Source: Pseudogymnoascus verrucosus (Eukaryota). From it: a stretch of 64,000 nucleotides of DNA. The stretch is from the NCBI GenBank assembly GCA_001662655.1, contig KV460212.1; one strand, 5' to 3'. The notes beneath the pieces are model-generated. The model had not been told where the DNA came from, ran no database searches, and saw nothing but the letters and a program-made list of their open reading frames with translations. Positions 580 to 60,987 of the stretch are shown here, piece after piece; positions within the stretch are counted from its first letter, which is position 1, and each line of letters opens with the position of its first letter. The position numbers and the translations under genes were made by a program.

Positions 580-2748
580 CTATCCGTTGCCATTACACGA
601 GGAGTCACAAGGGCCTCCGGCAGCACACTGAACCTTATTGTTGTCAAAGCATCGACGACGAGTCCCAATCGCTGTGTGGAAATAAGCATGCCACTTTCCA
701 ATTTGTCAGTCTATATTTATATTCACAATTAGGTCTGTGCTTACCTCATATCCATTCTCATCCGGTTGGTCGAAGTAGTCAAAGTTCTAGGCGGTTAGAC
801 TACCTGTAGGAAGTCAGCACCAATAAGTGTCGAGTAAATTACTCGGAAAAATTTCTTACCAGAGCCACAACACGGATTTACTTGTTTCATTAACGACTGC
901 TGACCCCAATCATACGTTGCCCACCCGGCGCCATAGATGTCATAATTTTGAAATGCAATTTTGTACCATCCCTTGCAACTCTGTGATGGCGCCGTTGGCG
1001 GTGGCCATGGGCGATTCGTCCTATGAACTGAGACCGCATAAAAATACTCGCCCTCGGTTCTGTTGCCACCACCCTTCCAATTCATTGGATTGTTCCCCGA
1101 TCTGGGTACGTCACAGCCATTAATAATCGAGCTAATAGCTGTTTGGCAAGAGTCTTCGCTAAATGTAGAGACCTTGTCAGACAGCGATATGGCCATTATG
1201 AATTCGTCTAAGGTGCCAGAGTAATAAGTTTTAGCGACATGCCAACCAGCCACGTTTGCAGGCTTGTTTTTGGCTACATAACTGCAGAAATCATCGATGT
1301 TGTTGTTTAGTGCTCCAGCACTTGCGTAGGCACGGCTGCCGTGGTCTGAGAAACAGAACATATTATCGACTACAAGACATACGGGACTTTCTCCGAGTAT
1401 GGCAGCACGAGCATCTCCAATGGCATCAAGGGCGTATGCAGCGATGACTTCGTGGCCGAGGCCGTTTGGGTGGAAGATCTTCCCGATACTGTCAGGTAGA
1501 GGGATGGAAGATGCTGGACAACCCGGGTCGACAGGACCACGCTTGCTCATTTCTAGTCCATACGGCTCTGCGCCGTATGTCTCATTATCGTAGTGCATGT
1601 ATCCAAAACCACCACGGCTCTCCAACGGGGCCGTGACTCCGGTGAATAGCTTGAAGAACATGACGTTTGCGTTGCCCGCGTCGTCTGGATCCTACAGGAA
1701 TGTAAGAATCTTGTATTTGATACTTCTGAAAAATCTCTACTCACCGGACTCGCTCCTGCCTCGCCTGTGTTCAGAGTTACTTTAGCGGTCTAAATAGGAG
1801 GACTAGATGTCCTTTAATGAGAGACAACTTACAGAACTGCCCACCAGTGACCTGTGCCCATGGGTCCCAATCAGCAGTCACGATCTTCATCGTCGTTGTC
1901 GCGTTAGCCGCAACCTCATCTACAGCCGCTTGTATTACGGCATTGGTTTGCACTACAAGCGAGTTGAACTGTGTACGTCTCGATGTATTCAGTGGTAGCC
2001 CTGCTGTTTTTAATACCTGCCAATTTTCTTTTGTGCAAGCGTCGGTCTGGTCGTTGAAGTATTGAGCATACAAGACTTGGACTACAATCCCATTGTTGGC
2101 CATCTTGGAACTATAATTTATCAAAGTCAATTGAAATACGTGCATATAGAAAAACGTATATATACACACTCAAGGGCGATAAGAAGGTCCTTAATGTTCT
2201 GCTTGAAGTAGCCATCAGGTCCCAGTGCGGCGTGGGCAGTAGCCACAGCAGCGTCACATCGACTATCTAACGGTGCGACACCTGCAATACATTCGTTGAT
2301 GATATTTGACTGGATTTCTCGTCAGAATTTTGACATCTTTGAGCTTAGAGGTTTATCTCACGAGACAAAGATCATTTCCACCAGCAGTCATAATGACAAC
2401 ATCTTGATCATCATCTAAAGCATTGATCTGTTCAAATATACCAGATGAGATAGCTCCCGAGCATGCAACATACGTGAAATTCTTAACAGTTGGTCCGAAG
2501 AAATGATTCATGATCACAGGATAAGTATAAGAATACCGTGAGCAGTCGTCGGAGTTGTCGCTAAGGCTGTACAGATTTCCAGATCCAATGCCTGCTGTGA
2601 AGCTGTCTCCCACTGCGGCGAACTTCTTGATCCATGAGTAATCAGTAGGGTCTGTTACTGCTCTGGCCATGTCAAAGGAGCTGGCGGCAGCCGATACAGC
2701 AGAAACCATGGCAACGCTCAACGCCATCTCTAGTAAGGGCAGCATCAT
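580..2748 (-). pseudogene. Secreted SGNH/GDSL-type hydrolase with Cys-rich C-terminal domains; in-frame TAG near the 3' end (truncated allele or pseudogene)
   Basis: Signal peptide MMLPLLEMALSVAMVSAVSA; block I FAAVGDSFTAGIG, ACSGA, block III TAGGND, IFHPNGLGH; multi-exon; spliced 3' end reads CCGSGSLTA*NFDYFDQPDENGYEWHAYFHTAIG...CNGNG* with TAG at 787-789. Confidence 0.8.
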
Positions 2749-3606
2749 GATGAGCAGCAAGATGTCGCTGGTAACAATTTTCATCAGCGCAAACAAGAAC
2801 AAGGGAATGGGTAGTGAAAAGAACTTCAGATTCTCTTTGGCTCCTCACGAGATGCGAGTCGGTGTCTAATTGGAACCCTAGATCGGATGGTTGTCTCCAT
2901 CTAGACGACTTCTTCCGGGATGTAGCTGCGAAAGAATTGTTGGGTAAATGAGAAATGTTGGAAGGATCACTGTCTTAGATCGACACATGCAACTTCGATG
3001 GATTGGGGGGTCATCGGAAATGACGCCTTGCTACCCGTACGGAGGTAAAGCCTGGATCGGGGCTTTACTTCCGTACATGCCATAGTCTTTCCTGCACCCT
3101 CCTACTCCCGCCAAGCTGCGTTATAGTTGATCTACAGTAAATTCGAGTCCTGTATTTTTAGGGACCAAGAGTCAAGGGTGAGTGCACTTCTGCCAGAACC
3201 CATCCGAGGTCCACATGGATAATCGGTCCGTCAAAAATTGAGAAAATTGTAATCGAGCAAGTAAACTGGTGCACCTTGCCGGGGCAAGGTTCAGGGGGGG
3301 TGTTGCGAAAATCGTGAGCAAGGGCAAGGGTGCGGGCTAAATCGAATGTAGTTCGCGGATTGACAAACCCCAACCGTTGTATGACAAGGGCTGTTGGCCA
3401 TGGCGGTTTCATGTAACTGCATATTGTAAAGTGACTGATGGTGTCTCATATCCTCACCACTCGTGCTTTGTCAAGCTACATATTTCTTCGACGCAACCTC
3501 ATCATCGCTCGGCAGTGCCAAATTTAAGACATTGAAAATCATATGTCTGTCGTGTTTCTCTCTCTTAATTCTCTCTGATAGAACGCCTATGAAACATTGT
3601 GGTAAT

Positions 3607-4758
3607 ATGTTGCTGGTCAAAGCCATCCACGGTTGCCTGTACACTGGACTACTCTTCTCAACTATAACGCTGGCCTGTCCTGACTATCAAGACCTTCCAT
3701 TTTTCAAAGCCGCCAATGGAAGTAGACTTGATAAAGCTGAGTTATTGAAGAGATACTACACTGTCGAACCAAGCGAAGAAGCAACCCAAGCTCCCTCTAC
3801 ATGGCCCGGCAGCACTCTTCCATACTGCTTCGAAAACGATAATACGAAGACTCTATTGAAAGACTTGGTCGAAGATGGTTGGAAGCGCTGGCAGACATCG
3901 TTAGTGGTTGATAGGCAGTCTGTCTAAATTCTAGAGGCTAATGTTCACAGAGGCGTCGACTATAACATCCACATGGGGGAGTATAATAATTGTCCTGCCC
4001 CAGTTAATGGGAATGTTACAAAGGGCATCGGCTATCTTCTCATCCAGGCGAACACTGATGGGAGGTTGCTGACCACGATTGGAACTCAGTTTTATAGCGA
4101 AGGAAACGGTGCATTTATGCTCTTTGATCCCAATCCAGATCTCGCCATGGGGGATGCCGTCGCCAACATGGCGCACGAGATAGGGTGAGCTATTACGTTC
4201 GTTATGAACAAACTTGACTGACAGAGAAATAGACACGCATGGGGGTTTTATCACGAGCAGCAACGCCCTTACTTCTGGAACAAGGTCCAATACGCCCAAG
4301 CCACGGGACCCACGAATCAAATCAATTTCGTTTGCACAAATCTAGCCGATTATGTTGACAAAGCCGGGACACCAAATGGAGACTCGAACGATGTTTGCCA
4401 CAGCGAAGCAACGGCTAAAAGTAGAGGGTTTTCTGCACTCGAATATTTGCCTATGAAAATGTCATTTACAGCTGAGCTTGAACTTGCAGACTTTGACTGG
4501 AAATCCATTATGCTTTATGGATCTACGATTGGTGGTAAGGTGGTGAACGGTGTTCGCGCCAATGTATACACCAGAGGTCATGATGGAGCGGTTAACCCTC
4601 ATAACACGTCGCCGAGTCAGCTGGACGTAGACAGGTTCAATGCAATGTATACGAAAAAGGCGAAATACAAGAACCCATGTTTAATCAATCATGGTTGTAA
4701 CCCAAAGTACGCCTCCTACATGAACTTGAAGGTCAAGTGTAAGAAAAAGCTCAGTTAG
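3607..4758 (+). CDS. Secreted astacin-like (metzincin) zinc metalloprotease, 3 exons
   Basis: Signal peptide, KR processing site (LLKR-YYT); spliced zinc motif HEIGHAWGFYHEQQRP (HExxHxxGxxHE); Met-turn KSIMLYG; introns at ~3900-3949 and ~4185-4232 join the ORF fragments in frame. Confidence 0.85.
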
Positions 4759-5384: not shown

Positions 5385-7404
5385 ATGAAGCTATTCTCAC
5401 TTCTCCTGGTCGGGCTGGTCGGGCTCGCTTCTATTATTTCTGCAGATTATACATGTACAAAGACGAAAGATTGTGCCAGTGGATGTTGCAGGCTAGGATC
5501 TGATGGGTTTGCTCTGCCTTAATATAGAGTTCAAGTCAATTGCTAAATTCTTTCTAGAACGGGAAGCTGTGGTCTTGGTGCGATTCTAACGCTTCTTGAG
5601 CCGTAATCATCTGTACTAATCGAAATCAAGGACCTACATTTTGCGGAGCAGGCAACTGTACATCGACGTGTGATGCAGTTTCTGAATGTGACCCTGGATG
5701 GGGTTCCAAATGGTCTGCAGCAGAAGCTTGTCCTCTTAACGTCTGCTGCAGCCAGTACGGCTTCTGTGGTGAGTATAACAAGGTTTAAATTCGAGGACTT
5801 GATGGTGATTTGTTATAGGTACCACTTCTGATTTCTGCGGATCATCTACCGTGACTTCTCCTTCCTGCGGCGGTGCCAGCTCCGATGCTCGAACGATTGG
5901 ATACTACGAAGGCTGGAATCTGGAGCGACGCTGTGATAGTACGTATATCAGCCCATAGAGCGTGTGCAGCACTGATGATATTTAGCCATGACTCCAGAAA
6001 AGATACCCTTGGGGTATTACACACATATCAATTTTGCATTTGCATTAATCGATCCAGTCACGTTCAATATCGCTCCTATGGGGTCTGATGTTGCCGCACT
6101 TTATCAAAGAGTCACAGCCCTTAAAATTCTGCAGCCTGGGCTTCAGGTCTGGATCTCGGTTGGAGGATGGGCAATGAATGATCCCGGGCCAACAGCAACT
6201 ACATTCTCAGATATTGCGGCATCGTCTACGGCACAGTCTAATTTTTTCAATTCTTTAATCAGCTTCATGGAGAAAAATGGGTTTGATGGCGTTGATCTTG
6301 ATTGGTAAGTCTTGAGGAACCTGTTCTAATTTAAACTTGGACACAAGTACTAACCGGGTTTTTAGGGAGTATCCGGTTGCACCAGACAGAGGGGGGATTG
6401 CAGCTGACCATGAAAACTATCCTGTATTCCTTCAGAACCTCCGAAATGCATTAGACCAGAGTGGGATGCCAACTCGTCCCGGAATATCAATTACGATTGT
6501 GAGTGAAAGGGGGTAGTCTTATGGTAACCCCGTTTTAAACTTATCTAGCCATCTTCGTACTGGTATATGCGCGGCTTCGACATCGTAAAGATCGATCCTG
6601 TAATTGACTTTTTCAATATCATGACTTACGACATTCACGGAACTTGGGACTCCACGGATCCGTCAATTGGAGCTATTGCGCAAGCACACACGAATCTAAC
6701 GGAGATTGAGCAGAGCCTGGAGCTCCTTTGGAGGAATAACATCGATCCCGCGAGAGGTAATCCTTTCGGCACATTCCGAACATTTATGTGAATGCTGATA
6801 ACTGTCTCAGTAAATCTTGGTCTTGGATTTTATGGTCGCAGTAAGTTTATAATTCTCATCCGCCGATTACCACACTCACTAAATTAACAGGCTTTACAAT
6901 GAGCAGCTCGTCCTGTCTTGCATCAGGTTGTCAATTTTCTGGTGGTGGCAAACCCGGGCCATGCACAAACACGTCTGGAATTCTTTCAGCTACTGAGATC
7001 AGAGAAGTAGTCGCTGGTGGCGCATCCGTCACGTTTGATCCCGTTGCAGCTGTCAAGATCATCACGTGGGACAACAACCAATGGGTCTCTTATGATGATG
7101 TCGAAACCATGAAGTTGAAGCAAGTCTCTTCAAATATGACCTTTTGATCTGGCAAAGCTAACTATGTGTTGCAGAGTCCAATACGCCAATAGCCGCTGCC
7201 TTGGAGGGTGAGAATTGGATTCCCCGACATGACTTGTGCCTCCTGCTAATGATGCTTATTAGGACTATGGTATGGGCTGTAGATTTGGATGATGGAACCA
7301 CGATAAATGCACTTGGTTCGGACCTCAGTCGTCCAAAAACTCCAACTCTTGATCCGAGTCTTTTGGACCCCAACTTTAACAATACGGATTTGGGAAGTGA
7401 CTAA
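5385..7404 (+). CDS. GH18 chitinase, subgroup C-like (killer-toxin alpha-like), with N-terminal hevein/CBM18 modules; many introns
   Basis: Signal MKLFSLLLVGLVGLASIISA; Cys-rich GCC...GSCGLGPTFCG and CPLNVCCSQYGFCGTTSDFCG; THINFAFA, ISVGGW, spliced FDGVDLDWEYP (DxDxE intact), NIMTYDIHGTWD, WVSYDD, GGTMVWAVDLDD; one intron (7120-7174) is best modelled as GC-AG. Confidence 0.93.
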
Positions 7405-8455: not shown

Positions 8456-11400
8456 ATGGCTGTACTGCGTCTGCTGTTGCTTTCGACTATTCTAGCGGCT
8501 TGGAATGTGCAAGGAGGCATCATCGACCTGAAAGCTGCACAGGTCGTCCGAAGAGCAACGACAGCTCATACATCATACCGCACAACTGCAGGCTTGCCAA
8601 CGCAGACAGGAATTGCCGCAAACTGCAACAAGTTCTACGATATAGTTACGGGCGATAATTGCGAAACTGTAGAAGCTGCGTTTCAAATAACGAAAGGACA
8701 GTTTCTGGCATGGAATGTAGGTTCTGAATGGGGGATCTTATGTTTCTAGTAACTGAACTGACAGCCCTACAGCCTGCCGTTTCCGATGACTGCGTCACCA
8801 ATTTTTGGGTTGGAGATTCATACTGCGTTGGCACGGCTGCTGGTGGCGTTAGCAGTACTAAGAGCAGTACTAAGAGCGTTGCTCCTCACACGACTGTTCA
8901 CTCGACAGCAGATCTACCTACACAGTCCGGATCCATCTGCAATTGCAATAAATGGTATGATGTGGTAGCTGGCGATACCTGCGCGACAATTGAGAGCACA
9001 TTTGGGATCACACTTGCTCAGTTTCTCAAATGGAATGTAAGCTGGCACTGTAAATCCACCCTCAACCCTGTGCTGACTTGCAAAGCCAGCTGTATCGTCC
9101 GACTGTGCGACCAACTTCTGGACTGGGGATAGCTACTGCGTAGGGACAACAATAGCAGCTTGCCCTACAAGTACCTCAAAGACGACTACAAGCCATACTT
9201 CTCCTACCATCTCTTCAACTTACTCTATACTTTCGCAAATAACGAGCTCATACGTGCCGGCTACAATTGCAACAGCCACGTCCTGGCCGCCGACTCATAC
9301 CCAGGCTGGGCAAGTAGCATACTGTGAGAATCTGAGTTTCTTCGGGTAGGCAAAGCTAACCGACTGTCACAGGCAATAACTGGGATCTGGTATCTGCAAG
9401 TGATACGTGTGATAGTATACAGGGTAGCTATTCAACCTTCATGTCGATGGATGACTTGTACAAATCCCCCGAGCTTTTTAACATATTTAAACAAAGAGCT
9501 GACATGAGTATCAAGCATATCATGGAATCCAGCCATTGGTGTTAATTGCACCGGTCTTTATGTTAACTACTATGTTTGCGTTGGTGAGATTCTGCTAATT
9601 TAAATCTAGGCAGGAAACATAGCTGAATCTTTTCAGGAATTCAATATCAGACAAGTGCTATAGATAACTCTACTGCAACCTCATACTGGTACCCATCATA
9701 CACTCCAACTACTGCTCCAACACTTAATACATCGTTTGTTGCATCACCGACGCAGACCGGCATCCCACCTAGCTGCCTTGCTTTCTATCAGGCCAGCGCA
9801 AATGATACATGTGAGACGATTGTAGAGAAAGAGGGCTATGTGACATTAGATGAACTCAATGAATACAATGTGAGTCACAACACTTTATGACACCTGTGCC
9901 CAACTAACAAGTTAGCCCGCACTTGGATCTGATTGTTCCGGGCTAATTCCAGGGGATTATTACTGTGTCATGAACGGTACACTTCCGTTGCCATCTGTGG
10001 CAACAGTGGCACCGACCGCGACGCAGACTGGCATTGTATCCACATGTGTCTCATGGTACCGAGCAGATAGCGGAGACAATTGCCAGCTAGTTGTTGAAAT
10101 ATTTGGCACATTTAGTGCAGCAGATTTCCTGACGTGGAATCCAGCTGTTCTCTCAGACTGCTCAGGTTTTACAGTTGGTGATTATTACTGTGTTGCGATT
10201 CCGTCAACGCCAACAACAAGGACCACCAGTTATAGCTCTACGCCACTGCCGTCAAATGGAGTTGGCCCCCAGCCAGAACAGCCTGGAATTCCAGCCGCCT
10301 GCGCGGATTACTGGTTCGTTGGCACGTATGTGTCACGATTTCGTTTTTAACTTTGTGCACTATAACATTCACTGAACTTGTGTACAGACTAGACACCTGC
10401 GACTCCATTGCGACAAAAAATAATATCACAGTCGCTCAGCTGGAAAGCTACAATGTAAGTGGACTTCGAGATTCAAATAATTTTGGCAGGAATACTACTA
10501 ACGCGCTCATAGCCAGCACTTGGCAGTGACTGCTCGGGCCTGACACAAGACTACTATATCTGTGTTGGAAAGCCAGACAACTCCACAACTAGTACTACAG
10601 CTTCAGGTACAACTACTGGCAGTATTCCAAACACTCAGACTTCAGCTTTCAGTAGCTCAACAACAACTCCAACTTCATCTCCTTGTCAAACCGTTTCAGG
10701 GATAGTCTCACCAACACCTTCAAACGCCCTTTGTGGAGTTAAGGGTTCCTCAATTGCCGCCTCAGGTGCTGGAACTCTTATTGGATATGTTACCGGCAGC
10801 AGCTATGTTACAAGTCTTGCTGCTTGTAGCTCACAGTGTCTAGCAACTTCGTGCTGTACAAACATCTATTTCATTCAAGGGAGAAACTGCAACTTGCACT
10901 ATGGACCCAACGCTTTTAATAACAACGTTGGAAGTACACTGTTTGATTTTTATGATGCGACTTGTTTCACCTGTGGAGCGATAGGCTGTACTACAGCACC
11001 AAGTACAACTACTGGTGCTTCTCTAACAAATACAGGAGCGCTAGGGATTGTCACACCGTCTCCTGTCCAGGTAAGGACTTAACAACTCCAAAAAGATTAT
11101 GAGACGAGGATGGCTGACTATTATGCAGCCGAGCATGGTGAGTGGTTGCGAGAGATTCTACTACGTCGAAAGTGGCGACGGATGCTACAATCTAGCAGCT
11201 GAGGCGGGCATACCTCTTAGTAAGTTCAAATATGTTTCCATCTCAGTGCATACTAACTGGCATGCGTTCTATAGATAGCTTCTACTCTTACAATGTAAGT
11301 AAACCATCTACAACATGCTCCTCTCTGTACTAACAATTTGAAGCCTGCCGTAAAAACAGACTGTACCGGACTTCAAGCCCATGTTTATGTTTGTATTGGT

Positions 11401-16442: not shown

Positions 16443-18651
16443 TGTTACGGATGTGAGACTAGGCCCGTAGCAGGCCGCTACGCCACGTCTAGGAGCTACT
16501 ATCACATGTTTGAGGCTGTTTGAGAGCTTTAGCTCAGGCCCTCACTCTAGCCTACTTACACCACGTAGGCTCCGTAGATAGTTTAGTTAGTCAATTGATT
16601 GTATTACTGCATACTATGCTATATACTCTAGTTTTCGATGTCCCTATTTTCGCCTGCATTTTACCACCTATGGGATACACAGCCGTTTTCGCTATGAATC
16701 TCTAGCTACAGCTAATATCCTCTAACGTATTTCACATACGAGTGGCCTACACAAGCGAGTGGCCTACCAAAACACTAAAATTTGACTATTACTGCCTACT
16801 ACTACACCACCACCCTACATAATGACCCTTATTCAATCGTAATTAAATCCTCGTGCCTCTCGCACGTACAGGAGTTATGGCCTATAATACTACATAAGCC
16901 GCAGCGCTTGTGTTGGCCCTTAGAGCCTACCTACCAACTACTCTTACTTGCTACCTCTATACAGACTTAAGCTTTAACCTTAGCACTTTAAACAATATCC
17001 TCTCCCTCTTATATAGAGAGACTACCCCCTTGCATTATACACCTCTTACACTTCCTTTCCCTCCTATTTTTCTACTCATTTGCTGCTTATAGAGCCTTAA
17101 CTTCTACCTTAAGTAGAATAGTAGAATGTATTATAACTTACACCCCTTTAACAAAGTAGCTAATAGCATTATTAATTAAGGTAGGAGAGCTATTCTAATG
17201 TTATACAACATAGTTCTTAATATGCTCTATTTAAAAATTAAGCTCCTTTATAGTTTAAGAAGGTCTTTAAAGTCTAATTATTACTCTTAACTATTAGAGG
17301 AGTTAGAGTTCTTAAGTATAGATTAAGCTAAGAAAGAATATTATATAGCTTATATAAAACTACTCTTATAGCTTAGAATCTACTCTTAATGTTCTACTCT
17401 ATAAATGTAGCTTTAAATGCTTCCTTAAATATAAAGAGAAACCTAAGCTTTATAATATAGTTTAGCCTATTCTATATAAAGGTTTTAATCTAACATCTAT
17501 ATAAAAGCTTTAGTAGAGTAAAGCAGCTTATATTAAGTAGCTAAAGAATGTATAATAAGTATAATAGTATATAAAGGGTAATTATCTTCTATTTTATATA
17601 ATAGTACTAAAATTAAGCTAAGAGGTAGCTCTTATGTCTATTAAGAATAAGAAGATAATAGGTTCTAATTATATAAGTGCTTATATGTTAATTAAAGTGT
17701 TAAATCTACTTATACCTAATTAAATTTAAAGTCTACCTATTCTTACTTAATATAATTACTTAATTGTCTTAAGTCCTTATACTAAATAAAGAGGTAATTC
17801 TATACTTTAAAAATAATAAATAGTAGGAGTGCCTATCTATATAAATTAACACCTTAGATAATTAACACCTATTCCCTATTCTCTAGCTATATAGTCTTTA
17901 GATAGCTCTTTACTCTTAAGCTTATAACTACCTTTATAGTAGTAATAACTCCTATTATAAAACCTACTTTATTAAAGTTATAGATATTCTACTTTAAGAT
18001 GCTATATTTTATAACTATGTTTTATATAAGAGAGAACTACTATTTAATTATCTTTAGATCTTTACATTTTACTCTTTTATACTTATACTTTAACTAAACA
18101 TTACTTTAATTTCTATATAACACTTTATAAAGTTAGTAGTCTAGTTAATCCTAATAGGGCTCTTACCTTATTTAGAGAGTAGAAGGTTAGCTATTTCTAT
18201 ATACCTTATAGCTAGAGTAGAAATCTACATAAATCTAGGTTAAGGATATACTAAACGAGAGCTAACTCTTTATATAGAGTTAACTTCTATAAGTTAGGAA
18301 TAGAGTTACATTAAGAAGTCATTCCTTAAATTTGTTAACATAGTGTTGTTTAAGGGATATTATATAATGCTATAGATACTTAAACACTTTAGAACTAGCC
18401 TTGTTTAATTATACTAATTACTAATAGTATTCTACCCTCCTAATTAGAGGATTTAGCTTATGTTAGTTGTAGCATGTTGTCTGCTGTTAAGTTGACGCGT
18501 CTTAGTGTTTTAGTGGGCCACTCGCTTATGTGGGCCACTCGTATGTGAAATACGTTAACACATTCTAATAATCTGTCTGTCTAGTAACTGAAATGCATAC
18601 ACGGGGCAAGTCGGTCCGCCCTTGCCGTGGCTTGTGACTAGCGGCTTAACA
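16443..18651. mobile_element. Probable solo LTR (~375 bp) split by the Fot1 insertion
   Basis: Begins TGTTAC at 16443 and ends TTAACA at 18651 (TGTTA/TAACA inverted ends); non-coding; no matching TSD seen. Confidence 0.4.
16725..18555 (-). mobile_element. Fot1/pogo (Tc1-mariner superfamily) DNA transposon, heavily RIP-mutated
   Basis: TIRs ACGTATTTCACATACGAGTGGCC... / ...GGCCACTCGTATGTGAAATACGT with internal CGAGTGGCC duplication; TA TSD at 16723-24 and 18556-57; 1831 bp; TpA-saturated interior; relic transposase start (SSN*EGRILL) on the minus strand. Confidence 0.9.
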
Positions 18652-18848
18652 AAAAGGGGGCTGTGCAGAGTACAGACATCTGGAATTCATGGGCTAAAAA
18701 CTCCATTTGTTATAGGGAGTGGAAATTGAGCTTCCGCCCATATTCGCATTGCACTCTCATTGGTCGGATTGGTACCACGGAATACTAAGCCGGGTAAGAA
18801 ACCGGACTGATATTACCTTGCTGCTCCTGCATGCAATCGTTGCTTGCT

Positions 18849-18935
18849 GCTGTCATGCGGGGGAACATACCCCCGTTAGCAGGGTTGTAGTCGCCGCTGT
18901 CATGCGGGGGAATATACCCCTGTTAGTGGTGTAGT
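18849..18935 (+). repeat. Two-copy 47-bp tandem repeat
   Basis: GCTGTCATGCGGGGGAA(C/T)ATACCCC..GTTAG at 18849 and 18896. Confidence 0.8.
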
Positions 18936-19343
18936 AGAGATGAGGGGGTTCAAGCTTTGTCCTAGTGCGCTAAAGGCCTTGGTTTCCCCCCTTCTCCCGT
19001 TAATATCTACGACATACACTAATCCACCTTCTCCCGTAACTACCATACCCCGCCCCCTCTGCCTTGCCTCTGTATCTTCCATTCCTATGAACAAATTGCT
19101 AGCGTCCGTATACTGAGTGTTTAGGCGAGATGCTACCGCCTTGCCGTATTGTCGCGATCTCTCTAGTGTTTCTAGCTCTACAAAACCTTAGTTTTCATTA
19201 TGAAAATAGAGGTAATACGGACTAATATGACCCCGTGTTAATGGCGTTCGTCAATATATAAAGATGACGATAATTGCGAGATATCAATAACAAGATACAA
19301 TCCACCATTCTTAAGATAACTTACACAAAAGAAATCGATTAAT

Positions 19344-19752
19344 ATGAAGCTTATATATATTGTCACAGCTTTTGCTCTCTCAGCCGCAGCCGCTCCTGTT
19401 GAATCCTCAAACAACAATGAAAATATTGTAAGCTAATGCTTATGATACTAAGTTCCTACATCTAATAGTCATGGTACAGGAGGCGCGTCAGACCCTCACT
19501 TGCACCTCTTCCACGAGCAGCTGTGAGTCCTATATTTATCCTTATAAATGCTTCCCTTTTTGCTAACATGAAACGTTAGCTTGCTATTCACGCTGTCAGA
19601 GCCAGGGTATTCCGGGTTACGGTGCTTGCTCAGGATACGTATGATTACTCCTGCTATCGTCTGTGAATCAGGCATATACTAATTGAATTCTATAGTGTCA
19701 TTTGTTAGATGGCACCCATGGTTACTGCGTGTGCAGTTGCCCGCACCCATAA
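19344..19752 (+). CDS. Small secreted 8-Cys defensin-like peptide precursor (80 aa, 4 exons)
   Basis: Exons 19344-19427, 19480-19522, 19580-19638, 19696-19752, all GT-AG with CTAA(C/T) branch sites; MKLIYIVTAFALSAAAAPVESSNNNENIEAR-QTLTCTSSTSSSCYSRCQSQGIPGYGACSGYCHLLDGTHGYCVCSCPHP*. Confidence 0.85.
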
Positions 19753-20121
19753 TTGACGTATCACACGTCAGTTTGGGAGGATTCTCTCGCTTTCGCTTCT
19801 ATGTTTGTGGTGGGTTGTTGCAGGTCGTTGGTCTCCGTTTGTATAGAGTCCTACAAAAGAGTATGGAATAGAGGAATCCTATACATAACAGCTACTCTTG
19901 TCCTAGGATGAAGGATGGTAGAGTTAGCAGCGTGTGTTAGTTATTAAGAATTGGATCTCTATTTTCAACTTTACATGCTCTCGCCACTCTTAGGTAAGAT
20001 AATATTAAAATTACTATTATAATTTATATAAACACTTAGGAATCATGTAGAACATTTGCAAGTCGTCCTTCTAACTAGTAGATGGTGCAACTAAGTCGTA
20101 ATAGTTTTTATCATTTATGTA

Positions 20122-20263
20122 ACGTATTTCACGTACAAGTGGCCTACACGAGCGAGTAGCCCACTAAAACGCTAAAATGCATTAACTTTACAAATTTTAA
20201 CATACCACAACTAACACAAGCCTAGTCCTCTAATTAGGAGGGTAGAATACTATTAGTAATTAG
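20122..20263 (+). mobile_element. 5' end fragment (TIR plus transposase start) of the same Fot1 family as 16725-18555, opposite orientation
   Basis: TA|ACGTATTTCACGTACAAGTGGCC...TCCTCTAATTAGGAGGGTAGAATACTATTAGTAATTAG matches the reverse complement of ~18420-18555. Confidence 0.85.
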
Positions 20264-21025
20264 CTGGATCTGCCGTGTAGATGGTCTGGATTATGGGATT
20301 GTCTGCAGTGCCTATGCCCCTTCTATTAAGCAGAGCACCCAAGGACAGTAGTCCTGGCACCACAGACAGCAAGCGGTTACGCATAACTACCTTGCTAGAT
20401 GCGTGGTGAATTGTAAATAGGAGTGGCTCTTAGGACAAAACGATACAAAAGGCAGACGTATCTCGACAAAGGCATAGTACGATGCTGACCAGAATACATC
20501 TTATCTAGCAATTTATACGACTTGAAGAATGTAAATTTTTACATGTCTTCCCTTCAAATCAACGTCACACCCGATACTATGCCAACCCCCCTAACCACCT
20601 CATTTTAGGCTAAAAGCAATGGCTGTTGGGGGAGGGGATGAGTGCAATGACGGAGCAATTTAATAGTAGCGCAACAGTGCATGGTTTCGTGAACGAACTA
20701 ACGCCGGGTTTATAAACACTACATAGGCCGTAGTATGGGGTGTCTGTTATTACTCGGCTTGAAAGGTGGGTCGTGCGGGGTATGTTCAGTGATGTCCGTG
20801 CTGTCAATAACTACTTGACCAATTGCTTTAAAAATCAAACAGAGTGCTTTTATGATTATAAAAAGCTAAGATTATATTTTTATAACTTATTATTAAAGGG
20901 TTGTCAAGATACTAAGTTACGAAATTCACGATTTTTGGTGTAAAATGCAGTGTTCCGCTCGCCCGTGTGTTCCGCTCGCATGTGAACCACATTAGTTATT
21001 TGTAGTTTATAATAGAGAGATGATT

Positions 21026-21071
21026 GGGGTGGACCACTCGCTTGTGTGAACCACTCGCTTGTGTCGCACGT
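21026..21071 (+). mobile_element. Isolated right TIR of a Fot1-like element
   Basis: ACCACTCGCTTGTGT duplicated, ending ...GCACGT|TA. Confidence 0.65.
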
Positions 21072-21311
21072 TAGCAAGCAGAAGTAAAAGGGAAGAAACA
21101 AGAGTTCATTTTGTCTGTGCTTGATTTATGCAAATATGAACAAGTCTCCGGCCGGAATAGAAGAAATTTAAAACGCAGCCATCAGCAGCTCCATCCCTCC
21201 ACACTATGTACAATCTCGACCTTCGAAGCCGTCCGAGCCTCAATCCGATGATCACACTAAGTGAAAGAGAAGTCGGCCTTTCAGTCTTTTGACGACACTG
21301 TCAATCATCTC

Positions 21312-22642
<1,331 letters not shown>

Positions 22643-23356: not shown

Positions 23357-25217
23357 ACGTACATGTATAGCGAATGTGCAAAACAAGCGAATGTGCAAAA
23401 ATATCGCAACTACCCCATATGAATTGTGATAAGTCTACCACAACACTAGAAATCAATTAAAACTACTCGGAGACCTCTTCTTCAGACGTGTCTATTTCAA
23501 TCTGACAAGTGCGCGCATTATGCTTAGTCCTACCACATTTTCCATAGCGACGAGCACGGGTTTCTTCCCTCGGCTTGCGACTACCACTTGCCCTTATTTC
23601 CTGCTCTACTTGCTGTATAACGTCCCTCTCATCCTGTAGATCCTGCGCATCCTGTTGACTAAGTGATCCTCCTTGCCGTAGGCGTGTTTTTTTTGCCCTC
23701 CGGCGCTTGCTTAGTACTTCATTTACCTGTCGTAGGTTTTGGTTCTCTGCCTTTAATAATGCTAATTGATGCATTATTTGCAATGCGCCCTTTGTAAACT
23801 GGTCAATAGCTGCATAGATTAAGGTTGGAGAGCTATTTTGATGGCGTGAAATCCGAGTTTTAATAAATGTAGACTGTGACATAGCTTCAATTAGGTTGTT
23901 TAGCGTCTAGGAAACCTAAGGTTGAGCGGTACTAGGGCGGGAGCTTGGAGGTGTTGGTGTCTTTAACTTAAGATCAAGTGTAGAGATCACTCTATTTGGG
24001 TCGAATGGAAGAAGTCCAGCACCTCGGAAGCCTCCTTAAATGTTACTTTCTGTCATTGCAATGTTAAATGTAGCGTGGAAGGTAGGAAAGAAGTCATCCT
24101 TAGTAATGTGAGAAATATGAGCTCGCATTATATCTTTAATTTGCCGACCGTAAGCCTTTTTTAAAGGGCCAAAACAGCTAATATCAAGCGGTTGGAGTAT
24201 ATGGGAAGAATGAGCAGGCATGCAGAGAGTTATAATGTTGTGTTCCTTGCAGTACTCCTCAAACTCATCTGAATGGTGGCTCTCATGACCATCAAGGACT
24301 AAGAGGCGATAACCACTAACACTCCGGGCCTTTGTATGCTTCTCAAAATGCTGAATCCAATCCATGCCTCTCTCGTTTGTAGTCTAGCCATTTTCCGTAA
24401 CAGCAATTACCTAATCGCTTGGAAATCCACTATTCTCATACTATGATGCAAGGTGGTTTTTGCTAGCAACAACGATGAATGGCAGTACTGCCTAGCCTTG
24501 AGAACTAACGCCTTAGATTACTGTAACCCATTCCCGATTACTAGGCTGTACTTTCTTTGCTTTTACCCGCCCGTCTAAGCTTGTTACAACCATAGCAGTT
24601 GAGATAACACCTATTATAAACCTAGTCTCATCAAAGTTGTAGATATCTGCATCGTTGATTCTATACTTCGCAATTGTATTCTGTACAAGCTCAAACCAAC
24701 TACGGATAACTTCTGGGTCTTCACACTTAGCCCTCTAGTAGTCGTATTTGCGCTAGAAGCGTGTCTAGAGCTCTGTGTGGCGCTTCACAAAGTTTGAAGC
24801 CCAACGCGACCTAACGCGTGGCGCGTCGCGTGTTGCAAGTAGTCGATTTGCTATATCTTCAACAATAGACATCCGCGGAGGAAATCCTTTAGCAGCTAGG
24901 TTGAGTATGTGTTGAACAAGGACTGATTCCTCTAGGTTTGACAATTTCCGTGAATTGGCTATAATATCACGTCGTGGTTGCATACCATGTAGACGGCGAC
25001 TAAGCTTGCAGTGGTCTACAGAATAGGTCTTAGCTACAGCGTAAAGGCGTAGCGTAGGGTCTCTTTGAATAGCTTGGATAGCTAAGGTCAACTCTCTCTC
25101 GTCATTTTTAAAAGGCATGTTATGTTGTGGTGGAATTATCGAGTTTAGTTAGGGGGTAGGGTGGTCGCGATATTTTTGCACATTCGCTTGTTTTGCACAT
25201 TCGCTATACATGTACGT
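23357..25217 (-). mobile_element. Fot1/pogo DNA transposon, full length, lightly RIP-mutated
   Basis: Near-perfect ~50-bp TIRs ACGTACATGTATAGCGAATGTGCAAAACAAGCGAATGTGCAAAAATATCGC; TA TSD; 1861 bp; transposase 25118->23463 with HTH/CENP-B region, LLVLDGHESH, QPLD and C-terminal knuckle relic, broken by TAG/TAA. Confidence 0.95.
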
Positions 25218-40763: not shown

Positions 40764-43700
40764 GTGCCTGGTTCACCCGCATTCTCTTCGAGCTCGACGG
40801 CGGAAGGAGGTTCCTCTCCTATTCTTCCGCCCCTGCCACAGCCGACCATCAACGGTCGCAGCCTCAACCTCTCCAACACTCCGCCTTCCGAGTCCCGTAC
40901 GGAATCTAGCCGCTACTTTACCAGCTGGGGCTCTCCATACCAGGAACCGGCAGACCCAGTCCCTTCACGCCCGCATCGTGGGACTTTGAGCAGCGATACT
41001 TCCGAAGACTCGCCTCTTCGGAGATTAGACTTTCACTCCCTGCACCTTCGACCCCCGCCTAGCTTTCTCCGTTCCGCTACAGAGCCTGTCGCTGCCCCTG
41101 TGAGTGCCAGCGTATTAGTTAATCGAGCTCGCAGACCGACTCGTGGCTTGACTGAAGATTGGATCAGACAGCATACCGCAACCGAAGATACAGAGATTGA
41201 ACGGTTAGCCTGGCTCAGTGACAGCAATAAATCTGACGAGAAAGGGTACTCTTCACTGAGTAGCTCTGAGGCCGAAGATCAGCTTGAGGAATACGAATTT
41301 GGACAAAAAACGCCAACACTAAAAAGCTTTCTTGAGCGACGCTATAGCAAGCACGACAGCCGACGCCATCTCAGAGGCCCTAGCGCGGAGACTATCCGAC
41401 CAAGGGACGTTCCCAGATACAAGGCGCCTACCAGTATGACTTCCTCGGCGAGTTATGAGACGGCCGCGCAGTCTGTGGCTGGCATTGTCGCACAAGATGA
41501 TGTCTTTGCTGCCTCGCACGACACCCCGCCACCAACTATAGACAAGCCGCTTCCGACACCTCCGGCGGATACCGCTTCAAGTTGGCGCGCAGCGGCGCTG
41601 CCTATGGCGAGCGATGTGGCTCTTGAAGACCTTACACCAAAGCCAATCCCATCCCCAAACCCTGAGCCTCCGAGGCTGAAGACCAAAGTTCCTTGGGGAA
41701 AGAAGAACATATCCATTCTCCTGCCATTAGACGAAGATCGCGGGCAAGAAGGAAAGGGCCCTAAACCATTGACTGAAAAGGATGTCATCTCGATGCTGCG
41801 CGACTGGGAGCAGCTCGGCTACAATGTCACGGGCTTCAACCTCGACGCCGACGGTGAGCCGCATGAAGCAGTGTCCCAGGGGCAAAGCCGAGGCATGTGG
41901 CCGGATGCTACTGAGATACGTCTTGAACGGGACGCCCGTGATTACAGGATCAGCATTCCTGACAGACGACACTGGGATGCATACGTAGAGGAGCTGAAAG
42001 AGGCCAAATTACGAGCTCTCGGAGTATCACTGGGTGATGAAGATCCCATCCCAGCACCTTCACCCGCTCCAACGCTGAGCCGTCAAGCTTCAGCGCAATA
42101 TGGATTACCCTTCCAGCCTCCGCTCCCAACATCGTCTGCTGCTAGCAGCCATGGTACGCAGCCCTCCAAGCTCTTCTCGCCGCCATTGCTTCCTGGCGCT
42201 GGTCCTGCAACAGGACAGAGCTCGTTTGTGGGATCCACCGCGTCAACGTCATCAGGACACGGCCATATGCTGGGAAAGTTTCACAACCCACGCCAATCGA
42301 TTTCATTCTCTGGCGGGGAACACCCATTCGGGTCGCCCTACGGTGGCTCCCAACAGCAGTCTCCTGTCCCATGGTCTCCTCAACAGATGCTATATCAGGG
42401 TATGCATCGTGGTGGTTCTCCATCTGTGCATAATTTCGGTGGATTTGCTTCTCCGGGCTCGCCTTTGCCACAGGACGGTTATTTCCCCAACGAGACCACC
42501 CCAATCGCCGTTCAACCCCAGCGACAGTTCTCCAACCAAATGTCGTTCCATCAAGTCCAGCAATCCATCTCAAGACAGTCCCCACGACTTCATGAGTTCC
42601 AAGCGGATAGCGAAAAGAGCGCTTCAAAGACGCCCGAGGCCAATCAGCCCGCTCATCGCCTCAATCTAAGTGACAGTCTACAGAAGGAAATTGAAGATGC
42701 AGAGTATCATTTGGAAGAACAATTTGAACGTCAATTGGATCATGATGACTACAGCCCTCACTCGGAGCGAGCCCCTGTATCGCCTCCACAAGCGGAGCAG
42801 CAGCAGCAGGAGAAACCCAAGCCAGCCTTTGCAGGCTTGAGTGCTTCCAAATATGCTGATGAAGAAGGGCCTGTTTTATACCACCCGCAACCCCACAGCC
42901 GGGGGCATTCACTTTCCCAGCGTCCATACGATGGAGAAAGTGCCAGCCCCACACTCGCCTCTGAGCCTGCTAAACTGGAGACGTCTGAAAGCTCCGCCAA
43001 TCCAAGTGCTCTAGGCACCCCGAAATTTGTCAACAGCAGCATTCACCAAAGATCTCAGTCCATTGCCACCAACCTATGGGCAGATTCTGAGCCAACCTCT
43101 GGTGCCGAAAAGGCTAGTCGCGGTCATGTGTCCAAGGCTTCAACGTCCAAGCTGAACGTGGCGGCACCAGAGTTCAAGTTCAACGCTTCGACCTCCTCCG
43201 AGTTCAAGTTCAACCCCGCATCTGCCTCCGAGTTTAAATTCAACCCAGCTGCATCCTCAGAGTTCAAGTTCAATCCCGCAAGCACGTTCACACCTAGCAA
43301 ACCCATCTTTGCCGCCCCGCAGCCGGAAGTGTCAGCTTTCAATACCACATTCCAGCCGATCAGTCCCAGCCCAGTGTCGCCTCCAGTCACATTTGGTGGC
43401 AGCAAGATCAACGTCAATGCTGCTCCATTCACACCAGGCCAGAGCGAGTTCAGCTTCTCCTCGTCGGGGCCAATGTTTAGACCTGACGCACCCGAGTTCA
43501 CTCCACTGGCTTCGTACATGTCTGATTCTGCTGGCAGCTCTGCCGAAACACCTGCAAACCTGAGATCGTCCATCTTTGGTAACATTAGCATGAGCCTGTC
43601 CGACATAATCAAGCAGCCCAAAAAGTCCAAGGCCATTCCAATCATTCGGCCAGACACTTCGTCTGGCAAGAGTGGAGATGAGGATGGTGGTGTAGAGGGC

Positions 43701-46700
43701 GAGGACGGCCGCATCACGCAGGGAGACGGCCGATTCAAGAGGTCCAGGGCAGATGTAGGCGATGGCGATTCGGTTCCACTATTTGCCCAGCCTACCATGC
43801 CACTCCAAGAGACGACCCGAGAACAATCCCCACCAAAGGATGCAACTCCAGTTACAGCCAAACCAATTGACAAGGAGAACGCCTCACCGATGGACCTCGA
43901 CCAAGAGCCTCTTCGCATTGTACCGGTGCCGGAGCGTGCTCTGCAGAATCAAACCCGGAGTCGATTCGAGGACTCACCAGACTATGAAGGCAAGGCCTGG
44001 GCTCCATACGAATGGCAGCAACAGGAGGATGCCGTCGACTTCAGCAGGTCCAACCCTCACTCTATCGGCAGCGCCCCGTTCACGGTCTTGGACCAAAACG
44101 TCCCAGCGGAGGAGCCTGCTGCACCCGCGCCACCGGCTGAAAACAATGACCACAAGAAGCATAAGAAGAACTCGCTGTCTGCACTTGCAAAACCATTCCA
44201 ATTCGGTTCAAACTGGTTCGGGACTGAACCGACTGAGCCAGAGGCGTCAGCTCCTACCAATCCATTCGCATATGTTGCCCCCGAGCCCGCAAAAGTCACT
44301 CCTGCACCCCGCAAGGGGCTCGCAAGCTCGAGATATGCGGACCCAACTCCCTCGCCACCACCACATCGAAGCGAGGTCGACGCAGAGGTCGAAGCCAGTG
44401 ATCCTGAAATATCAGCGTTGGAAGAGCCCGCACCACAAAGCCCAGCAGCTTACGACGGAGCTTCTTACATTGCTACCCCGCCTCGGGAGGCTTCGTTCGA
44501 GGAGATCGACGATATCATGCGCCACATCAACGAGGCCGACTCGTCCATGGGTGCTGTCAGACACGTAACGGAGCCCGTCGGCTCGGAGCAGACTCTGCAG
44601 ATGCCGCACAGCGAGTCGTCTCCCATTCGCCTCCATCCACAAAATCTGATGCGCAGCGATGCTCCGAGCCCTAGCCCGCGACGCTTCCAGGCTCTTCCTG
44701 GAGGCCGTGGACAACGAGTCTTCTCCAGGGTTGAAGACGACCCATTCGTGTCTCACTCGCCAATTGCCAGGGCATTCGAGACCTCTCCTATCCACCATCT
44801 CAATGGTGATGAGAGCGTGGAGCCAAGCGACTGGGACAGCGTTTTGGATCGTGATGACGAGTCTAAATTCAACGCTCGATCTCAATTCTTTGACAGCCAT
44901 GTCAATGATATCGTTGGCGGCATTCTGGCCGAAAAGCTAGGGCCCATGGAGCAAGCGTTGCAAGTCATTCAGCTGTCACTTGCAACCTTACGACCACCTT
45001 CGAGCCGCAGAGCCCGCCGCAGTATGTCTGCCGAGTTCCAAGAAAGCGATGCCGACGATGAAGACGACGATGAGGGTCATCGCCGATCACTCAGTCCCAG
45101 GAAGGATCGAAAGCTTGACAAGATGCGAAGCATGATTGCTGAGGCATTTGCAGAGCATCACTCAGTGCAGCGTGCTACGAGCCAACCCGAGGACGTCCAG
45201 GGACACTCTGAGGTCCTCCAAGCTCTCAAGGAGCTTCAAGGCCAGTTTAGCCAACCCAAGCATACTGATGTCGATTTCCGCAATATTGTCGAAAGTGCAA
45301 TTGAGAGCCGGATGCCGGTTGCCCCAGTCGTTGACGATGCTGCGCAAGCCAAGATCGCTGAGCTAGAAGCAAAGGTTTCTGAGATGACGGCAAAGATTAC
45401 ATCCGCCGACGAGAAGATGGAGTTGGAGGTCACGAACCGCCGCACTGCCGAGGATCGTCTGTCTGAGGTCCAGAGGCTTCTCCGAATCTCTTCTGAGGAA
45501 GAGGTGCGACTCCGAGAGTCGCTCGAGGAGCGCGATAAGAAGGTCAAGACTTTGGAGGACACGAGAGCCAAGAATGCAATGAGGTCAAATCTGCTCGAGG
45601 CCAGCTCGCAAAACTCGCAGAAAAATCACTCCGACCTCACCAACAGAATCGCCGTGTTGGAGAAGGACATCGCAGATGCTCGCCAGCAAGGCCGTCAATG
45701 GGAATTTGAGACCCAGAAGGCCACTGAGATGGCCAACGCAAGCAAGGACGATGCCGAGAAAGCGACTGCAGAGTCAACTGCCCTCAGACGTGCAGTCGAG
45801 AGCCTCAAGCTTCAAATGCAGGAGAGTCTCCGCGTCCGCGAGAACTTCCGCAACAAGCTGGGCAACCTGCAAGATGATATGGCCAGGGCAGCCCAGGAAG
45901 TGTCACAGGAGAACGCCCAACGCGCAAAGAAGGAGCAAGCTCTTATTGCGCGACAGGAAGTCCTCGACGCGAGGCTGCAAGCTGAGGCGCGCACCAGAGA
46001 GCGCCTTGAGAAGGAGATCGAGAGGCTTGAAGCTGGTGAACGCGAAGGCATTCGCGCTGTTAACGACTCAAAGAAGCTGGATATTCTCGTGGTTAACCTT
46101 GAGAACGAACTCAATGCCGCCGAGAAGAACGTCCTGCGCCACAAACGCGAGTTTGAGGAGGCTCGCGAGTCCGGCTTGAGCGAAGTCCAGCGAACCAGGA
46201 ACTACATGCAAGCCGAAATTGAAGCAGCCAACAACCAAGTCAATATCGTCAGACAAGACCTCGAGGATCAACTTGCGAGGGTTAGAGCAGACTTGGACCA
46301 CGTCAAGCTTGATGCGGATACTGCCCGAGAGAGGCATGATATGCTGCTAGAGGAGGCGACAGAGTCCAAGGCCAAAGAACTGAATGAACTCATCCGCCGC
46401 CACCAAGACCAGATCGAGGATATGCAAACCCAACATGAGCGCCAGCTCAGCAATACCCTCGAAGACGCACAACGATCTGAGCAGCACCTTCTCGAGAGGC
46501 TGAGCCTGTCATCTGCCAAGACAGAGCACCTTCAAGACCGAGTGGCTCATGTCGAGGAGAAGCTTGAGGTTGCCAAATCGGCGGCTCTTGCTGCGGTACA
46601 AGCTGCCCGAACTGTCAAGGACGCTGCCCAAACACCTGCTCTGTCAATGAAGCTTCCCGAGAAGGTCTCGCCGCAAGCTCTCCGCGAGTCCATCATGGTC

Positions 46701-58918: not shown

Positions 58919-60987
58919 ATGCGCTTCACATCCTCCGTCCTACTTCTCGCGGCCACCGGCTTGGCTGCCCAGGTCGCCGGAGCTTCAATCGGCTCCCATG
59001 CCCACGAGGCTGCGAGAGGCCTTGAAAACCCCGTTGCTGTGAGAGAAAGCAACCACAGCCGACGACAGCTTAGACGCCGCCAAAACCGCTTCGGAGGTGG
59101 CAATAGATTTGGAGGCAACAACGGCGGCCAGAACGCCAACAATGCCGCCAACACTGGAGGAAACAACGGCGGCCAGAACGCAAACAATGCTGCCAACAAT
59201 GCCGCCAATACTGGAGGTAACACCGGTAACACCGGTAACACTGGCAACAACGGTGGAGGCAACAATGGCGGAGCGAACCCGACTTGCTTAGCAGCCAATG
59301 CTGTGCAGACTGGCAGTGCTGCGACTGGCCAAACTAACGATGTTGCTGCAGCTGGTCAAGTTAACTCGGCAACGTAAGGTTTCTTAACCCCATATATATA
59401 CACCAGCTAACGGAAGCAGTGACCCTGCCAACTTCATCAACTTCTGCTCCGGACAGACCGTCACCAATGGTTTACAAAACACTGACGGCTCGTGCAATGG
59501 AGTTGGTGAGTCAGCCTATTAAACCAAACACTGGACCCTGCTGATTATATATAGTTATGGGAAAAATCCCCGCCAAGAACAAGATGGTTTCTAGCATGAT
59601 CATCAATCCCCAGCCAGGTCAAGTCTTGGAGCCACTCACCACCTTCAATGTTGAAGTTCAGATGGCCAACTTTGCACCTGGCTCCTTCACCAACGCGGCA
59701 AACACATATTACTCTGCCCCGCAAAATCTCGACGGCCAAGGCCAAATCATTGGCCACACTCATGTCACTATCCAGGACATGGGAAACAGCTTTACCCCCA
59801 AAGATGCTCTTGATGCCACAGCATTCGTCTTCTTCAAGGGAATCAATGATAATGGAAACGGCCAAAACCTTCTTTCTGCGGTAGTCACCAATGGGCTTCC
59901 AGAGGGATTCTACCGAATCTGCACTATGAGCTCATCCGCCAACCATCAGCCTGTACTTATGCCTGTAGCTCAACGTGGTGCTCAAGATGATTGCACTAAG
60001 TTCCAGGTCAAGGCGGGTGGCAATGGAGGCAACGCAAACCAGGGTGGAAACGGCAACAATGCCAACAACGGCAACAATGCCAACACGGGAGGNNNNNNNN
60101 NNNNNNNNNNNNNNNNNNNNNNNNNNNNNNNNNNNNNNNNNNNNNNNNNNNNNNNNNNNNNNNNNNNNNNNNNNNNNNNNNNNNNNNNNNNNNNNNNNNN
60201 NNNNNNNNNNNNNNNNNNNAATGCCAACAATGGCAACAATGCTAACACTGGAGGAAATGCCAACACCGGTGGCAATACCGACAACGGAGGCAATACCAAC
60301 ACTGGAGGCAATACCAACACTGGAGGCAATACCAACACTGGAGGCAATGCCAACAACGGAGACAATACCGACAACGGAGGCAATGCCAACAACGGAGACA
60401 ATACCAATGGTAACGGCGGGGCTGCTGATACAACTTCTGCAGCTGACGCCGCTGCTACAACCGATGCCGCCGCTGATGCAACTTCGGCAGCTGACGCCAC
60501 TGCTACAACCGATGCCGCTGCTGATACAACTGATGCCGCCGCTACGACCGAAGCCGCCGCTGCCACGACTACCGCAGCTACAAAAAACGGTGGCAAAGGT
60601 GGCAAGGGACGCGGAGGAAAGGGAAACCAAAGCGGGAACACCAATGGCAACACGAATGGCAACGGTGACGCTGCAGCTTCGTCAGTAGTCGACAACAATA
60701 ACGCTGCCACTACCGCTGCTGATGTCCCAGCCACCTCTAGCACCGCCATCGCAATGAACAAGGCCGGCAATCTCGGTGGAGCCGCGCCACCAGTGCTTAA
60801 CAGTGGTGACGCCAAGCGACCCTTCTGTGTCAAAGACAACACCTTCACGAACCGCGCCACGGCAGTGCAGCGCTCATGTGACATCCAGTTCAATGCGTGC
60901 GCCGATGCGATGAACGGTGGGAAGCTGCCGGGGGTCACAATGTCGGACTGCAATGCGCAGAAGCAAGCGTGCAGCAAGCAGGGATAG
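58919..60987 (+). CDS. Secreted Gly/Asn- and Ala/Thr-rich protein with conserved Cys-containing core; spans an assembly gap
   Basis: Signal peptide, basic RRQLRRR processing site; NFINFCSG..TNGLQ...GSCNG.VMGKIP core; GGNTNT-type repeats; C-terminal RSCDIQFNACAD..CNAQKQAC. Confidence 0.85.
60093..60219. other. Assembly gap (127 N) within the Gly/Asn repeat
   Basis: Run of n flanked by AATGCCAACAA repeats. Confidence 1.

Follow-up and report, generated by a model that had tools for sequence, protein, structure and literature searches.

The window, meaning the whole 64,000 nt stretch of Pseudogymnoascus verrucosus DNA analysed here (contig KV460212.1, assembly GCA_001662655.1), forms the end of a contig of a 30.2-Mb genome and contains a gene for a small, cysteine-rich peptide (Table 1). 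Its frame, as assembled from the sequence, has four exons and three introns, giving 243 nt of coding sequence and an 80-aa precursor. All three introns begin with a GT donor, end with a YAG acceptor and contain a CTAAY branch site, and retention of any one would, by computation, bring in a stop at residue 31, 57 or 64. The gene is missing from the open reading frame track because its longest exon is just 28 codons.

Table 1. Positions of the peptide gene's parts and of the flanking transposon ends within the window
Feature	Position	Strand	Basis or remark
TATA-like box	19255..19262	+	Sequence; 58 nt upstream of the start of the longest spliced contig (19313)
5′ UTR, minimum extent	19313..19343	+	Run X1 contig
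Exon 1: predicted signal peptide (approximately residues 1–16/17) and most of the pro-piece	19344..19427	+	Contigs, hydropathy
Intron 1, 52 nt, phase 0	19428..19479	+	Joint 19427>19480 in runs X1, X2 and X3
Exon 2: end of the pro-piece (EAR), predicted mature start Gln1 at 19489, first Cys at 19501	19480..19522	+	
Intron 2, 57 nt, phase 1	19523..19579	+	Joint 19522>19580 in runs X1, X2 and X3
Exon 3: CxxxC (Cys13, Cys17), CxxxCxxxG helix cap, GxC (Cys28)	19580..19638	+	
Intron 3, 57 nt, phase 0, immediately 5′ of the Cys32 codon	19639..19695	+	Joint 19638>19696
Exon 4, coding: Cys32, His-flanked loop, GxCxCxC (Cys42, 44, 46), stop codon	19696..19752	+	
3′ UTR, minimum extent	19753..19972	+	Contig ends: 19972 in X1, 19873 in X2
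Decayed pogo/Fot1-type DNA transposon with TA duplication and ~56-nt terminal repeats	16725..18555	-	Gene-facing end is its 5′ end
Truncated 5′ end of a further copy of this transposon, in inverted orientation to the left one, preceded by TA (20120–20121)	20122..20263	+	RIP index 1.77

Five sequencing runs carry part of the peptide locus, none of them recorded as RNA, and four of the five were compared. In three of these four (X1, X2 and X3), one contig lacks the three introns, with joints exactly at the modelled GT..AG sites; it spans 19313–19972 in X1 and X3 and 19324–19873 in X2, at a low depth of 4.5–5.3. X1 and X2 are two samples from one study, whose RNA nature is a guess only, and X3 is probably the X1 data refiled, having the same size and the same contigs, such that independent support probably amounts to those two samples. 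The X1 and X2 contigs carry three differences from the window upstream of intron 2 and none in exon 3. The fourth run, X5, is without cover of 19393–19699 and hence stands outside the splice-joint count; its exon 4 displays no differences over 53 coding nt, as against ~4 % in the flanks, which with 2.2 expected is not significant (P ~0.12). As the genome holds only one, intron-bearing copy of the gene, and as the contigs start 58 nt past the TATA-like box, they are read as mRNA: the peptide gene is real, transcribed, and spliced into the 80-aa frame. In principle, the spliced contigs might instead derive from a DNA copy without introns in another strain. The first-pass annotation had proposed a hidden four-exon gene at 19344..19752 and had named its three splice junctions as a check; the coordinates, exon number and cysteine pattern were right, with all three junctions found as modelled within single contigs. 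The promoter region also harbours a tandem 45-nt duplication (18846–18890 and 18893–18937), the copies of which are 84 % alike and each contain GCGGGG, presumably a CreA-type motif.

Flanking transposon ends

The two transposon ends lie 787 nt upstream and 368 nt downstream of the gene, in agreement with the ~790 and ~370 bp given previously. Terminal inverted repeats, a TA duplication and a DDE_1-type transposase, the marks of pogo/Fot1-type transposons, are all found in the flanking elements, which we take to be of Fot1 type. The left element retains a transposase remnant on the minus strand and matches the DDE_1-bearing element at 23.4–25.2 kb by tblastn (E 7.5e-6 and 4.2e-18), whilst its gene-facing end has at least 41 matches in the genome (40 of 81 candidates scored).

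It is very improbable that these ends form a composite transposon which brought the peptide gene here as cargo. Inverted arms (18414–18557 and 20120–20263, 83 % complementarity) do surround it, in a transposon-rich region close to the contig end, but the ends closest to it are each the 5′ end of a different element directed away from the gene, and the stretch between them, including the gene itself, is single-copy and carries no RIP signature (index −0.41, versus 1.29 for the left element and 1.77 for the right). In addition, run X5, from organism B (~96 % alike), covers the promoter, the beginning of exon 1, exon 4 and the 3′ flank, but is without the downstream insertion; beyond 20121 its contig goes on with 255 letters of different sequence, which is what an empty insertion site would give (a single contig at depth 4.4). 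The placement of the gene between transposon ends in the first-pass annotation thus does not stand in the sense of one enclosing element. Given this outward orientation and the lack of the downstream end in organism B, the ends most plausibly inserted later into a repeat-rich region and look incidental to the gene. Two diverged terminal-repeat-like stretches (20950–20997 and 21029–21076), which are 67 and 77 % alike to the end of the left element, lie between the peptide gene and a downstream xylanase gene. The second pogo-type element (23466–25148, minus strand) has HTH_Tnp_Tc5 and DDE_1 pieces, and is interrupted and less decayed.

Precursor, cysteine framework and known families

The predicted precursor consists of a signal peptide, an Asn/Glu pro-piece ending in IEAR, and a 49-aa mature peptide of 5.1 kDa, with cysteines at residues 5, 13, 17, 28, 32, 42, 44 and 46 (spacing 7-3-10-3-9-1-1). 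The signal peptide is predicted from a hydrophobic N-terminus by hydropathy only, and this, together with the pro-piece end, supports the pre-pro architecture suggested earlier. The extended Kex2 motif fits IEAR in its aliphatic P4 and Arg P1, with Ala at P2 outside the preferred residues (PMC8528282), and LDAR/LEAR sites stand before fungal antifungal proteins (PMC13525654). The computed charge of the mature peptide is −0.06 at pH 7 and +2.3 at pH 5.5 (pI 6.95), which upholds the earlier view of a low net charge and of no classic cationic antimicrobial; Arg16 is the only Lys or Arg, and the hairpin contains neither. With regard to composition, the earlier description as Gly/Tyr/His-rich fits in part only, as the commonest residues are Ser (9), Cys (8), Gly (6), Thr (5) and Tyr (4), with His at 3; there is also one Asp.

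The mature peptide contains the six-cysteine CSαβ framework C...CxxxC...C...CxC, of which CxxxC and CxC are the fold determinants (PMC5234102). GxC at array position C6 is also present, yet Cys28 and Cys32 both qualify for it. In a shuffle test that was post hoc, the peptide having been picked for its cysteine pattern, the strict pattern with GxC arose in 309 and, with the helix-cap Gly added, in 20 of 200,000 shuffled mature peptides, whilst the pattern without a Gly requirement arose in 2,717 and three or more GxC motifs in 5,663 of the same number. The CSαβ-type framework (CxxxC, CxC) recognised in the first-pass annotation is therefore rare in shuffles.

Four formal disulfide registers fit the framework, two of which are, by reasoning, geometrically sensible and stand as alternatives. 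Register A would pair 5–32, 13–42 and 17–44 with an extra Cys28–Cys46 bond, as in mussel MGD-1 and nematode ABF; this extra pair would lie directly across the hairpin, and the C4–C5 gap would be 10. Register C would instead pair 5–28, 13–44 and 17–46, with Cys32–Cys42 stapling a long hairpin of 15, a length also seen in macins; here the helix-to-GxC gap would have its usual value of 10 and the first spacings would be those of fungal family 4. The GxC(x9)C gamma-core noted earlier is present as a motif, but represents one option only, being one of three dextromeric matches and fitting one of the four formal registers (A).

Two single-sequence models were available for the unspliced read-through, which includes intron-derived residues, with a mean pLDDT of 48.8 and 51.7. 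In both of these low-confidence models CxxxC lies in a helix, and the GxC and CxC segments form strands. Fold searches with them returned no significant defensin match, and nothing at E ≤ 0.001 or Z ≥ 5. For one model, a pair of designed mini-proteins ranked highest at Z 4.2 (rmsd 1.4 and 2.5; 39 and 43 residues aligned), one strand of this model being derived from intron 2, and a scorpion-toxin mimic came at rank 43 (E 6.6); the second model reached a best Z of 2.7. As intron 3 precedes Cys32, the read-through models neither confirm the fold nor pick a register. The mature peptide probably has the CSαβ fold, although structure prediction readily misclassifies small cysteine-rich proteins as antimicrobial (PMC8670511).

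Protein searches used genomic read-through queries holding one or two 19-residue intron inserts, and are thus of low sensitivity, such that distant relatives may be missed. With these, word searches confirmed none of one candidate near query length (E ≤ 10), produced no candidate for a shorter query and confirmed none of seven among longer proteins; phmmer gave nothing at E ≤ 0.001 among 1.84 billion representatives, and none of 184 metagenome loci was confirmed. Pfam returned no family for three peptide queries, and none of five Venturia knottin/defensin-like representatives has the array 7-3-10-3-9-1-1. The gene is probably unannotated in the genome, since a near-identical annotated protein would share many exact words and so be findable, and the protein collection does contain others from this genome. 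Other candidates were set aside: a degenerate exon-3 pattern found at least 120 metagenome loci, all chance-like (best tblastn E 0.23 among the matches listed); PDB sequence matches to antibody light chains and two odorant-binding proteins (best E 0.025), and to one D7 salivary protein (E 0.38), were taken as noise; and cysteine-pattern scans of the fungus's own genome were too loose, with 578 matches versus 321 in the control, and 209 versus 170.

Comparison by eye with the 533 rows of a 2016 cysteine-spacing table (PMC5116183 supplement) revealed no row with the spacing 7-3-10-3-9-1-1. A literal text search for six written forms of the pattern returned no papers, and neither a later description of the array nor a Pseudogymnoascus defensin was found in the literature covered, which takes in few subscription papers. 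The same supplement lists fungal defensin-like families with eight (family 4) and ten (family 5) cysteines. The extra cysteine pair and non-standard pattern of the first-pass annotation accordingly hold for the spacing, which is unlisted, but not for the number, as eight cysteines are known in family 4.

Amongst eight-cysteine peptides, the mollusc/nematode class has the same cysteine order (array C2–C6 and C8–C10; PMC5116183) as the P. verrucosus peptide, but in register A only. Its spacings in the supplement are 5-3-6-3-7-1-2 for MGD-1, 6-3-4-4-8-1-1 for Hyriopsis HcDef1 and 15-3-4-4-8-1-2 for ASABF; MGD-1 shares CxxxC...CxxxC with the peptide, and HcDef1 and the Cristaria defensin share the terminal CxCxC. 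However, the C4–C5 gap is 2–6 in every row of this class, as opposed to 10 here in register A, and the peptide is fungal and near-neutral, with no sequence similarity detected. A fourth bond in common would most simply be convergent. Fungal family 4 is also similar, with eight cysteines, an extra cysteine inside the hairpin, and in six of seven rows the spacings 7-3-10 (C2, C3, C4, C6) that open the peptide's array (PMC5116183 supplement). Family 4 nevertheless has array C1 and C7 (5-7-3-10-5-5-1) and ends in CxC, whilst the peptide is without C1 and ends in CxCxC; the family's members are halves of two-domain precursors (PMC4165938), whilst the peptide has a single domain. Array C5 and C10 are already carried by fungal family 5 (cglosin 2, agysin and aflasin 3, at 13-7-3-6-2-7-1-C3), but with ten cysteines and a family-wide spacing of 13-(5 to 9)-3-6-2-7-1-C3.

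Plectasin, micasin and eurocin similarly possess a signal peptide, a pro-piece and a mature peptide with CxxxC, GxC and CxC, yet this plectasin-type family 1 has six cysteines rather than eight, and the peptide is not cationic at pH 7. The lipid II contacts of plectasin, Phe-2, Gly-3 and His-18 (PMC8877149), are not conserved, the equivalents being Leu, Thr and Arg. The antibacterial copsin family of Coprinopsis cinerea (PMC6461984) has a pre-pro precursor, a conserved N-terminal Gln and extra disulfides on a CSαβ core, as proposed here, but with twelve cysteines in 57–65 aa, and is basidiomycete and multigene. The Zytrisins of Zymoseptoria (PMC5234102) and VdAMP3 of Verticillium (PMC8670511) are likewise divergent, intron-split ascomycete peptides, albeit with six cysteines. 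The Zytrisins are mostly neutral or acidic, as is the peptide, and their intron falls within the codon of the fourth core cysteine, whilst intron 3 here lies just before Cys32, the fourth core cysteine in register A; the intron phase is 2 rather than 0, and the family is expanded rather than single-copy. The bubble-protein family is characterised (PMC13525654) by two levomeric-1 gamma-cores, C-x(3,9)-C-x-G, of which the peptide has none, and AFP/PAF proteins by a cationic nature and an N-terminal dextromeric gamma-core, whilst the peptide is neutral at pH 7 and its first GxC is at residue 26 of 49. Judged from these comparisons, the gene belongs to none of the named families. It is an apparently unannotated defensin-like peptide, in which the extra cysteines are not new among fungi and only the spacing is unlisted.

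Possible function and alternative readings

The preferred reading, which remains tentative, is that of a lineage-restricted, secreted CSαβ peptide (cis-defensin) with four disulfides, acting as an antagonist of competing microbes and acid-switched by its three His. We infer all steps after splicing. The signal peptide would be removed in the ER and a Kex2-type protease would cut after IEAR, upon which Gln1 may cyclise; in copsin, the N-terminus is a pyroglutamate. The helix over Cys13-x3-Cys17 would be tied to the C-terminal CxC strand, four disulfides would form, and the peptide would be released. Its three His would take it from neutral at pH 7 to cationic in acid, with the microbial envelope in acidic surroundings as the most likely target, reached via the His-flanked Leu-Leu tip of the hairpin; plectasin-type lipid II contacts would play no part. 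The GH18 chitinase, LysM protein and GH11 xylanase nearby are the neighbours counted for an antagonist role. Given the CSαβ fold, an antimicrobial function is somewhat favoured.

The same fold could serve a secreted signal, a growth regulator or a protein-binding module without killing, a reading that is less likely but deserves serious weight. The peptide is neutral and its hairpin is without Lys or Arg; Zytrisin-1 folds as CSαβ and is inactive on 11 test strains (PMC5234102), an inactivity tied to a missing c-loop cation that counts against an antimicrobial role here, and some fungal defensin-like members regulate growth instead. Nor is activity predicted by the cysteine pattern (PMC5116183). 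Against a non-killing role, non-cationic fungal defensins can be active, since anionic AfusinC is antibacterial (PMC6181372) and VdAMP3 antifungal (PMC8670511), and the peptide gene exists in one copy, whereas the Zytrisin family has expanded. Rather unlikely is a coincidental defensin pattern on another disulfide-rich fold, be it knottin-like or all-beta as in bubble-protein/AFP, or on a Cys/His metal-binding peptide. Eight cysteines and xEAR directly before the mature chain do resemble the bubble-protein family (PMC13525654), and shuffles yield both the Gly-free pattern and three or more GxC motifs at the rates given above, but the absence of levomeric-1 gamma-cores speaks against bubble-protein, the neutral charge and late first GxC against AFP, and the helix over CxxxC in both low-confidence read-through models against either. 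The C-terminal CxCxC and the His could form a metal site. Against this, cysteines passing through the secretory route are more likely to form disulfides than to stay free.

Returning to the antagonist reading, a bolder form of it is doubtful: that the peptide is the founding member of an undescribed fungal family with a fourth disulfide of its own, either a mussel/nematode-type bond reached independently or a Cys32–Cys42 staple across an unusually long gamma-core hairpin, and a His-switched, N-terminally blocked Pseudogymnoascus antimicrobial that annotation overlooked as every exon is below 30 codons. As this splice-supported gene did not surface when the public protein collections were searched, defensin-like peptides split into micro-exons may escape fungal annotation. 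If the fold holds, the peptide adds a cysteine array unlisted among the fungal families of the 2016 table (PMC5116183), and offers a clear test between two disulfide registers. This would not be very surprising to the specialist, as fungi hold many divergent defensin-like peptides. The genus Pseudogymnoascus is cold-adapted and counts the bat white-nose pathogen among its members; should the peptide prove active, its neutral charge, acid switch and four disulfides would make it a lead unlike plectasin.

Other genes in the window

Upstream of the peptide gene, SGNH/GDSL lipase and alpha-galactosyl-binding fungal lectin domains occur at 795–2844 (minus strand) and 3439–4755 (plus strand), the two kinds of domain lying together on one strand; an adjoining astacin-like match is weak (E 0.0017, below the cut-off). 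Pieces of a GH18 chitinase followed by two LysM-bearing frames are located at 5979–7144 and 8728–10526, both on the plus strand; GH18 chitinase/LysM pairs are linked to fungus–fungus antagonism. A two-exon GH11 xylanase gene (21312–21989, minus strand) follows 1.5 kb after the peptide gene, in the opposite orientation, and DUF7730 is also encoded nearby. A neighbouring MFS transporter belongs to a 90 %-identity cluster of 23 proteins, in which the nine entries listed under an organism name all come from Pseudogymnoascus. Further along, a single-frame protein of 2014 aa (41436–47480, plus strand) has no Pfam match and is alone in its 90 % cluster; its residues 1–300 have no usable look-alike, and its C-terminal half appears coiled-coil-like by eye. 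Finally, a 476-aa frame (59557–60987, plus strand), likewise without a Pfam match and containing a run of N in the assembly, displays long Gly/Asn and Ala/Thr/Asp repeats and a cysteine-bearing tail.
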